Shown here: positions 47,523-49,442 of the stretch, piece by piece
Numbering within the stretch: the first letter of the stretch is position 1
Layout of the letters: each line of letters starts with the position of its first letter
DNA from: Gemmatimonadales bacterium
Lineage (GTDB): Bacteria; Gemmatimonadota; Gemmatimonadetes; Gemmatimonadales; GWC2-71-9
DNA length: 64,000 bases
Reading direction: 5' to 3'
NCBI GenBank assembly: GCA_039794085.1
Contig: JBDIWC010000012.1
Coordinates: 23,760-87,759, forward strand
The notes under the pieces: generated by a model
Database searches by the model: none
Told to the model about the DNA's origin: nothing
What the model saw: the letters and a program-made list of their open reading frames with translations, nothing else
Position numbers and translations under genes: made by a program

Positions 47523-47903
47523 ATGACATTGCTCACCATCAGCACGCCGGACGCACCCGCCGCCATCGGCCCCTACAGCCAGGGAGTGGTGGTCGCCGGG
47601 TTTCTCTATACCGCGGGGCAGATCGCCCTCGACCCGGGGTCCATGGCCGTCGTTCCGGGCGGGGTCGCCGAACAGACCCGCCAGGTCATGGCCAACCTTC
47701 GTGCCATTCTGAGTGCGGCCGGATCGGGGCTCGACCAGGTGGTGAAGACCACGGTTTTTCTGGTGGACATGAAGGATTTCGCCGAGATGAACGCGGTCTA
47801 CGCCGAAGCCTTCGGAGATCACCGTCCCGCCCGGTCCACGGTGGCGGTGTCGGGACTGCCGAAGGAGGTGAGGGTCGAGATCGAAGTGGTTGCGCGAGTG
47901 TGA
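47523..47903 (+). CDS. ridA: RidA/YjgF family deaminase
   Basis: APAAIGPYSQ, AGQIALDP, VVKTTVFL, PARSTV, VEIE. Confidence 0.93.
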   Translation: MTLLTISTPDAPAAIGPYSQGVVVAGFLYTAGQIALDPGSMAVVPGGVAEQTRQVMANLRAILSAAGSGLDQVVKTTVFLVDMKDFAEMNAVYAEAFGDHRPARSTVAVSGLPKEVRVEIEVVARV

Positions 47904-47913
47904 GGGGGGCGGC

Positions 47914-47962
47914 GGGGTGCTGGGTGCTGGGTATTGGGTGCTGGGTATTGGGTGTTGGGTCC
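47914..47962 (+). repeat. Tandem heptamer array (TGGGTRY) x7
   Basis: GGGGTGC TGGGTGC TGGGTAT TGGGTGC TGGGTAT TGGGTGT TGGGTCC. Confidence 0.9.
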
Positions 47963-48051
47963 GTTATCTTCGTCGGGTCTGAGGCGCGGGCCGCCCGCTT
48001 CGGCCCACGACATTCGCCTGCGCGGCAGGAATGCACCTGATGGATGGACCA

Positions 48052-48149
48052 GGGGGCGGATCGGGCCTGGTGGCTCGGCCGGTCTTCAAAACCGCGACAG
48101 AGACGCCTTCGGCGGCTCTGGTGGGTTCGATTCCCACACGCTCCCGCCA
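48052..48149 (+). tRNA. selC: tRNA-Sec (anticodon TCA)
   Basis: 8/5 fold, 6-bp D-stem with 4-nt loop, CTTCAAA anticodon loop, long variable arm, GTGGG-TTCGATT-CCCAC T-arm, G discriminator + CCA. Confidence 0.93.
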
Positions 48150-48636
48150 TCCGTCTCTTCCGGTCCACGTCCTGCTGTGCCTGGTGCTCGTGGTCGGGGC
48201 ACGCGGCCTGAACGCCCAGGGTCCTCCCTCGGTGGCGGGAGCGAGGCCCCCCGATTCCTCCAGCGCATCCACGGAGCGGGTTCTCAGTCCCTCAGGGGCA
48301 TTCCTCCGGTCCTTTCTGGTGCCCGGCTGGGCCCAGGCCAAGCTCGACCGGCGGCTGACCGCCGCACTCTTCATCGCCTGGGAAGGGGTCACGCTCGGCA
48401 TGAGCCTCAAGACCCACCATGAGCTCGGTGTTCTGCGGCGCCGGGACGATGAGCGGACCGACTCGAAACGACAGGAACGGGAAGACTGGCTGATCCTTCT
48501 CGCGTTCAACCATCTGCTGTCGGGTCTCGAAGCCTTCGTCTCCAGCCAACTCACCGATTTCCCCAGGGACGTGAAGTTGCGAGCCACTCCCGATGCCCCC
48601 GGGGTCATGGGCACCATCCCCTTCCGGATCCGATGA
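48121..48636 (+). CDS. Hypothetical exported/membrane protein (DUF5683-like); start uncertain, overlaps tRNA-Sec
   Basis: SPSGAFLRSFLVPGWAQ motif; signal-peptide-like segment; ATGA-coupled to murI. Confidence 0.7.
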   Translation: MGSIPTRSRHPSLPVHVLLCLVLVVGARGLNAQGPPSVAGARPPDSSSASTERVLSPSGAFLRSFLVPGWAQAKLDRRLTAALFIAWEGVTLGMSLKTHHELGVLRRRDDERTDSKRQEREDWLILLAFNHLLSGLEAFVSSQLTDFPRDVKLRATPDAPGVMGTIPFRIR

Positions 48637-49442
48637 ACCGCGCCCCGGTGGGGATCTTCGATTCGGGTTTGGGTGGGCTCACCGTGGTGCGCTCGGTTGT
48701 GGCCCGGCTCCCCCATGACGACATCGTCTATGTGGGGGACACCGCGCGCGTCCCGTACGGTCCCAAGTCACCCCGGACGGTGCGGCGCTACAGCCACGAG
48801 ATCCTGGCGTGGCTCCTGGCCCGTGGCGTCAAGGCCGTGGTGGTGGCGTGCAATACGAGCACGGCCCACGCCCTGGAGAGCCTGCAGGAGGCCTCCTCGG
48901 TGCCGGTGCTCGGCGTGGTCGATCCGGGAGCCCGGGCCGCGGCCCAGGCCACCCGAACGGGTCGGATCGGAGTGATCGGGACCGTGGGAACAATCGGGAG
49001 CGGGGCCTATGAGCGGGCCCTCCGGTGCTACCGGCCTGACGCCGTGATTCAGCAGCGCGCCTGTCCCCTCTTCGTGCCCCTGGCCGAAGAGGGATGGTTC
49101 GACCACCCGGCGACCGAGCTCGTGGCGCGGGAGTACTTGGCTCCGTGGCTCACCGGAGGCATCGATACCCTGGTTCTCGGCTGCACCCACTACCCCTTGC
49201 TCAAACCCTTGCTGGGACGGATCCTGGGCCCCGACATCGCCTTGATCGACAGCGCAGAGGAGACGGCCATCTCTCTCGCCTCCCTCCTGGCCAACCGGGG
49301 CCTGGAGGGCCCGGCGGATCGGGTACCGTCCCACCGGTTCGCGGTGACCGACGAAGTGGCCCGGTTCCGGGAGGTTGGCGCACGGTTCGTGGGGGCTCCG
49401 CTCGACTCGGTCGATCTGGTGGCACTCACCGACACCGAGTGA
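48633..49442 (+). CDS. murI: Glutamate racemase
   Basis: IFDSGLGGLTV, DTARVPYG, ACNT, LVLGCTHYP. Confidence 0.97.
   Translation: MNRAPVGIFDSGLGGLTVVRSVVARLPHDDIVYVGDTARVPYGPKSPRTVRRYSHEILAWLLARGVKAVVVACNTSTAHALESLQEASSVPVLGVVDPGARAAAQATRTGRIGVIGTVGTIGSGAYERALRCYRPDAVIQQRACPLFVPLAEEGWFDHPATELVAREYLAPWLTGGIDTLVLGCTHYPLLKPLLGRILGPDIALIDSAEETAISLASLLANRGLEGPADRVPSHRFAVTDEVARFREVGARFVGAPLDSVDLVALTDTE

Follow-up and report, generated by a model that had tools for sequence, protein, structure and literature searches.

The closest described counterpart of the locus considered here is found in Alphaproteobacteria, in which selC, the gene for tRNA-Sec, is nested in the 3' end of the selB open reading frame (ORF; Mukai 2021, PMC8124441). 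In the accessible part of that report, the nested gene is mostly 93 or 96 nt long, keeps a conserved frame and has the Sec elongation factor as its partner; the host ORF ends in a stop codon that overlaps the start of the following gene, tRNA processing is proposed as an alternative to translation, the nesting is lost in some relatives, and the evidence is bioinformatic only. The same text cites a tRNA-Lys inside cox1 of the Armadillidium vulgare mitochondrion, a tRNA that lies fully within a coding region of the same strand and whose processing excludes translation (as cited in PMC8124441).

The window (the whole 64,000-nucleotide stretch of Gemmatimonadales DNA that was analysed) carries the gene order ridA, selC, DUF5683-like ORF, murI. 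Comparison of this locus with its orthologs suggests that the DUF5683-like gene is probably translated from a start upstream of selC, with the tRNA read as the front of an extended signal peptide. The locus shares with the selB-nested selC a complete tRNA-Sec gene enclosed by a bacterial ORF of the same strand (provided that translation begins at ATG 48040), a host-ORF stop that overlaps the next start (ATGA, with murI), processing as a proposed alternative to translation, loss in some relatives, and evidence of a bioinformatic kind. It differs in that selC, 98 nt long, sits at the front of the gene for an unrelated exported protein, is read in three different frames among orthologs, would form a disposable signal n-region and is followed by a coupled murI. 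The arrangement works like selC-in-selB and is not a member of it, the host gene being another, the end the opposite one and the frame free. The mitochondrial case differs in its compact organelle genome and in that no signal peptide is involved. The features of the locus are as follows, a slash marking the predicted cleavage site.

47523..47903, + strand: ridA-family gene, the upstream neighbour (PF01042, E 3e-43)
48007..48199, + strand: imperfect inverted repeat flanking the tRNA, with its core at 48020-48030 and 48170-48180 (predicted folding)
48027..48030, + strand: AGGA, SD-like site for ATG 48040 (from the sequence; anti-SD pairing -5.5; identical in the relative G028)
48040..48042, + strand: ATG, the likeliest start as inferred, 12 nt before the tRNA (MDGP start common to P0001-P0004; upstream starts of orthologs in frame)
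48052..48149, + strand: selC, tRNA-Sec(UCA) (ARAGORN and Rfam; 7/5 acceptor/T fold, encoded CCA, 98 nt)
48067..48072, + strand: CTG-GTG in the D-arm, an alternative in-frame start behind the G-rich 5' acceptor strand (SD energies -8.9/-5.3)
48121..48123, + strand: GTG at the T-stem, an alternative in-frame start (SD energy -5.0)
48151..48216, + strand: h- and c-region of a predicted Sec signal peptide ending LNA/Q (hydropathy peak; family-wide AxA/Q; heuristic)
48217..48636, + strand: mature DUF5683-like protein, a low-complexity linker followed by three predicted helices (PF18935, E 1.2e-4; Atlas 0.96; model)
48633..49442, + strand: murI, glutamate racemase family, its start overlapping the ORF stop as ATGA (PF01177, E 3e-26)

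The window tRNA-Sec has a TCA anticodon in the DNA and scores 69.3 bits against Rfam RF01852 (gathering cut-off 47), with the UCA anticodon, long variable arm and G discriminator of that family; the canonical 8/5 (13-bp) acceptor branch is absent, 7 + 5 pairs and an unpaired A standing in its place. A 7/5 (12-bp) acceptor branch is described among bacterial tRNA-Sec, and in the accessible text these tRNAs resemble the window selC in their 7-bp acceptor, 5-bp T-stem and accompanying selA, selB and selD; the main text, to which the search was confined, contains no match for "Gemmatimonad-" (Santesmasses 2017, PMC5330540). Among the 50 tRNAs called in the window genome (G000) this is the sole tRNA-Sec. 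The selA, selB and selD genes of G000 all exceed their cut-offs, selB on a contig other than that of selC, and selD (L354, G000:C4:72190-73110) carries an in-frame TGA, within a G-U-A-C-K motif and with a predicted hairpin behind it, so that it likely encodes a selenoprotein. Because selA, selB and such a selD are present, the window tRNA-Sec is likely in use. A promoter and terminator scan found neither near selC, and no terminator 3' of it. Elsewhere in G000, a tRNA-Pro(cgg) call at G000:C33:32372-32452 falls within a long open frame that continues for 781 codons beyond it, and may be a false tRNA call inside a gene.

Either ridA or selD directly precedes selC in 95 of 104 orthologs, selD being the neighbour in several other families (L053, L061, L080, L163, L188, L390-L412). 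Between ridA and selC the window has a run of GGGTGCT-like heptamers at 47915-47960; similar runs make up most of the 54 matches in G000 and 53 in G028, and other heptamer runs lie 5' of selC in several relatives. A third genome of the genus, G098, has only the ridA match, with another gene after it.

The ORF (48031-48636) is open across the whole tRNA, and selC would supply codons 5-37 if ATG 48040 is used. The initial annotation of this DNA placed selC, the ORF, the AGGA 9 nt before ATG 48040, the GTG codons at 48121, 48184 and 48190 and the TRSRH segment correctly. It was also right that the frame is stop-free across selC, but in the window this is no evidence of coding, because the tRNA contains no TAA, TAG or TGA in any of the three + frames. 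The candidate starts differ in other respects. Anti-SD pairing is -5.5 for ATG 48040 and -5.0 for GTG 48121, and -2.8 or weaker for all starts 3' of the CCA; SD use is moderate in G000, where 54% of near-certain ATG starts reach -3.5 or better vs 35% of random codons. The predicted cleavage is at LNA/Q, with Q at 48217. GTG 48184 and GTG 48190 leave only 11 or 9 aa before it and have no SD. The list of starts had passed over four in-frame codons: CTG 48067 and GTG 48070 in the D-arm, and CTG 48172 and CTG 48175 after the CCA, which leave 15 or 14 aa to the predicted cleavage without an SD (-2.4 or weaker). A signal begun at CTG 48172 would have 15 aa and no basic residue. By the heuristic call, the h- and c-region are present in the window and a basic n-region exists only if the tRNA is translated, as TRSRH, encoded by 48136-48150.

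In G028 the equivalent of ATG 48040 is unchanged and the next codon has a synonymous change; the MDGP start is common to four proteins, P0001-P0004, which are 85-99% identical and whose starts are gene-caller choices, not measurements. ATG 48040 or GTG 48121 had been proposed as the usable start; the sequence comparison favours ATG 48040 as likeliest, and the T-stem GTG is weaker than upstream or D-arm starts. Initiation at ATG 48040 (or at 48031) has somewhat better than even chances, while the D-arm, the T-stem and the stretch after the CCA are each an improbable, and equally improbable, place for the window start.

The product matches DUF5683 (PF18935) at 22.5 bits (E 1.2e-4), which is below the curated cut-off of 26.7, so it is referred to as DUF5683-like. 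Most of its close homologs carry PF18935, and it shares the PGW.Q motif and helical core of DUF5683 proteins; the named homologs are nearly all from Gemmatimonadota. The structure model has a mean pLDDT of 68, and a fold search with it gave no PDB match at E 0.001. The product is likely a small envelope protein that is exported and, in the model, has three helices. The literature searched gives no function for DUF5683; one table row lists a Porphyromonas member among vesicle proteins (PMC13744359).

The gene was matched in 138 of 151 family genomes, a tally that includes the unpublished G134, G014 and G068, no locus of which enters the counts. The 352 loci gathered are a sample, drawn from two pattern scans over 4/64 and 5/64 of the collection parts and from G loci chosen by score and genus. 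The conserved core is found in 191 loci, with selC no more than 520 nt upstream in 131. From these 131 were dropped 9 without a cleavage call, 2 duplicates and 4 with too little upstream DNA, as well as 12 in which a stop follows the CCA or a long spacer accompanies a doubtful call, leaving 104 adjacent loci. A locus was classed as "no-room" where no ATG, GTG or TTG after the CCA precedes the h-region and leaves 15 aa, and otherwise as "room". On this definition 63 of the 104 are no-room and 41 room; the share would be 63/116 with the 12 dropped loci, most of which are conventional genes. The signal and cleavage calls behind the classes are heuristic and err both ways: L229 is wrongly no-room (it has a usable ATG), some cleavage sites are miscalled, and L246, L288 and L290 sit at the edge of the room class. 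Among 46 loci without an adjacent selC (two loci skipped), 45 begin at a normal start that gives a signal of 18-35 aa.

The region after the CCA is, judged by its composition and open frames, translated. Between the CCA and the conserved core, 103 of 107 loci have no stop in the gene's frame, against 32 and 71 for the other two frames. Over 697 codons before the first canonical start, T stands at codon position 2 in 302 cases vs 95 and 94 at the other positions, a bias partly built into the no-room definition; ordinary spacers have none (66/63/69). Substitutions by codon position in close pairs are flat (38/32/37). The basic n-region appears to have moved into the tRNA: a K or R of the gene's own before the h-region occurs in 6 of 26 loci where the tRNA frame is the most basic one, in 26 of 37 loci in the other frames, and in 43 of 45 non-adjacent loci. 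The initial annotation attributed the n-region TRSRH to the 3' acceptor strand and CCA; this is so in the window, but the peptide is not a conserved feature of orthologs because orthologs differ in the frame in which the tRNA is crossed (45/39/22 of 106 loci).

Translation could instead begin 3' of the CCA, at a late codon or one outside the canonical set (CTG 48172, CTG 48175 or GTG 48184), giving a short signal without n-region and no overlap with the tRNA. In its favour, CTG 48172 would yield a 15-aa signal and is conserved in G028, relatives seem to use CTG as a start (the L028 kinase), and the start does lie 3' of the tRNA in 41 of 104 adjacent orthologs. This reading is nonetheless quite improbable as an account of the locus. 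The window codons in question have no SD (-2.4 or weaker), and 27 loci have no ATG, GTG, TTG or CTG that leaves 13 aa. In 34 of 63 no-room loci no near-cognate codon is available either, that is, none of ATG, GTG, TTG, CTG, ATC, ATT, ATA or ACG leaves 15 aa, and 6 of the 63 have no ATG, GTG or TTG before the conserved core at all. A start after the CCA would also leave unexplained the frame-specific upstream starts and stop avoidance described below.

All three frames relative to the CCA are used by the no-room loci (27/27/10 of 64), a spread that speaks against a conserved peptide as well as any mechanism of fixed register. This bears on the proposal that the tRNA structure positions the ribosome, through a tmRNA-like resume or leaderless initiation on the processed 3' trailer. 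The h-region does begin no more than 5 codons from the CCA in 38 of 63 no-room loci, as such positioning might produce. The proposal predicts a fixed register to the CCA, though, and the constant register between tRNA-like domain and ORF that would make this a tmRNA-like resume ORF is absent; no AUG follows the CCA, a tRNA with a 3' trailer cannot be charged, and the idea is hardly credible.

Starts upstream of the tRNA are concentrated in the gene's own frame. All 63 no-room loci keep that frame open as far as the 5' end of the tRNA (other frames 50 and 56), and a start lies no more than 45 nt upstream of the tRNA in 44, compared with 8 and 4 in the other frames; for ATG alone the figures are 18 vs 2 and 2. 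With a 60-nt interval bounded by the upstream stop, an upstream start is present in 47 of 63 (9 and 4 in the alternative frames). Each of the remaining 16 carries an in-frame GTG or ATG within the first 20 tRNA bases (a post hoc rule), so an upstream or first-20-base start is found in 63 of 63, with 23 and 23 in the other frames (the D-arm part being post hoc). Stop triplets in the tRNA are likewise avoided in the gene's frame: none of 16 falls in it in no-room loci (permutation mean 6.2), and the avoidance extends along the full tRNA length, D-arm included. A start between the upstream gene's stop and the tRNA occurs in 44 of 60 no-room loci vs 12 of 35, and one overlapping or abutting that stop in 19 of 60 vs 3 of 35; a -1 register to the upstream stop was considered as a common rule and rejected, since it is not enriched (18 of 34 no-room vs 13 of 24 others). 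After collapse to 88 clusters an upstream start remains in about 42 of 54 vs 14 of 34, kinship still inflating the p-values. In room loci the signal is weaker, not null: an upstream start in 14 of 41 (other frames 4 and 10), and 2 of 16 tRNA stops in frame (permutation mean 5.9, p 0.03). Some of these genes may themselves start upstream; the alternative is that common descent exaggerates the signal. A -10-like hexamer ahead of selC is only weakly commoner in loci without an upstream start (13 of 41 vs 8 of 63).

In nine loci the in-frame start codon ends on tRNA base 1 (ATG in L085, L173, L229 and L257; TTG in L134, L195, L268 and L294; GTG in L008), and 5' processing would therefore cut through it; in three of these loci the start also overlaps the ridA stop as TGATG. 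The tRNA-derived peptide is part of 106 of the 120 nearest homologs as gene-called, a count biased by the query, and of 39 of 150 cluster representatives. In P0085 this peptide is shorter and may be what is left of a tRNA that stayed in frame, and P0031 and P0106 have altered T-arm-derived residues.

A kinase gene that follows selC served as a control. It has an upstream in-frame start in 2 of 27 loci (other frames 11 and 7), and 24 of 27 start normally after the tRNA by eye. In some genera a lipid-kinase-like gene lies between selC and the DUF gene (L028, L029), with an apparent CTG start behind a strong GAGGAG SD. Because the D-arm rule was noticed only after the 16 loci had been seen, a prediction was fixed before new families were examined. 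These gave 40 new loci, with selC adjacent in 19 and no-room in 9; an upstream or first-20-base start in frame was present in 8 of the 9 (other frames 4 and 1), and an upstream start alone in 5 of 9 (other frames 0 and 0). The 21 new-family loci without adjacent selC have ordinary starts by eye. The one exception, L399, has an in-frame TGA in the D-loop, and its start must therefore lie further inside the tRNA, at base 22 or later. L399 and L406 share a tRNA-Sec variant at bases 19-24, in which an in-frame D-loop TGA is directly followed by ATG.

L399 counts in favour of a start in the 3' half of the tRNA, at GTG 48121 in the window or at an ATG of the variable arm in relatives. Such a start would give the shortest extension and a near-normal signal of 32 aa with the basic n-region TRSRH, behind a weak SD-like site (-5.0), and 27 of 64 no-room loci use the frame that carries the T-stem GTG; an in-frame start in the last 30 tRNA bases is available in 11 of the 16 no-room loci without an upstream start. 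The remaining 37 of 64 use frames without that GTG, the GTG 48121 site is base-paired in the predicted fold, and both the enrichment of starts upstream and the avoidance of stops along the whole tRNA, D-arm included, are left over. Initiation this far inside the tRNA is an improbable explanation.

The preferred reading, initiation upstream of selC, would work as follows. Ribosomes would bind the transcript while it is still unprocessed, upstream of the tRNA or in its 5' part, and unfold the cloverleaf, giving a precursor signal of about 42-67 aa (one of 88; 59 aa from ATG 48040) with its hydrophobic core just after the CCA. Signal peptidase would cut at AxA/Q and remove the tRNA-coded residues with the signal; any stop-free frame would therefore do. 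Against this stand the length of the predicted signals, about twice the family's normal length, and the need for the ribosome to read through a stable tRNA fold. Transcripts that fold first would be cut at both tRNA ends, leaving tRNA-Sec and a 3' fragment without start codon. tRNAs are processed at their 5' and 3' ends. As processing separates the start from the ORF, each molecule would have one fate, pre-tRNA or mRNA. That a single transcript serves as one or the other, as first proposed for this locus, gains support from the comparison, in which translation very likely starts before the CCA.

The coupling to murI described at the outset (overlap at 48633-48636) is common: murI is the next gene in 105 of 132 loci with enough DNA, and its start overlaps the ORF stop in 97 of the 105. 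The mean SD energy of murI in the 105 loci is about -1, vs -5.7 for coupled ATGs in G000; because of the stop-start overlap and the near lack of an SD of its own, murI likely depends on translation of the DUF5683-like ORF and would share its fate. In the window, a leader-trailer repeat is predicted to bury the SD of ATG 48040, the predicted unpaired probability of the SD falling from about 0.25 to 0.03 once base 48185 is transcribed. The repeat is present in G000 and G028, two genomes of one genus, and the window helix lies in the 2% tail of the genome background, second of 50 tRNAs. As a general feature it was rejected: the mean z is -0.32 in the 63 no-room loci, which is not significant, and the helix is strong in L001, L002 and L080 only.

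These features could be taken to mean that the selC-DUF5683-murI transcript is a selected dual-function RNA across Gemmatimonadota, in which a kinetic contest between folding and maturation of the tRNA and ribosome loading upstream of it sets the output of an envelope protein and glutamate racemase, with the helix that buries the SD after complete transcription of the tRNA as a timer in this genus; this is an unlikely interpretation. Nothing in the sequence comparison points to control by selenium. On an 80-row tree (quick search, weak support), 32 changes are required to account for the six frame/start states; the states are scattered and the tree does not fix the ancestral one. So many changes are easier to reconcile with a private start that was lost and regained more than once than with a fixed regulatory device. 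The alignment of orthologs that the initial annotation recommended gives a mixed picture in the same sense: the open frame through the tRNA is not conserved, a usable downstream start is lacking in 63 of 104 loci, and a normal one is present in 41. Some orthologs have the stops or frameshifts between tRNA and ORF that had been named as counter-evidence, and the claim outlasts them in that the overlap is labile. The arrangement is probably a tolerated compaction, repeatedly gained and lost, that would lower output, and not a selenium sensor.

No report on the selC-DUF5683-murI locus was found in the literature searched, which comprised accessible main texts. If the reading is true, the locus would provide an independent, widespread second example of a functional bacterial tRNA that is also translated into protein, with the tRNA as the disposable front of a signal peptide, which would explain why the overlap is tolerated in any frame. 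Annotation rules that forbid CDS-tRNA overlap would truncate the DUF5683-like gene or drop selC in many genomes. The locus would also offer a simple system in which to study how the ribosome competes with tRNA folding and RNase P for a single transcript, to which a gene for a peptidoglycan precursor is coupled on the 3' side.
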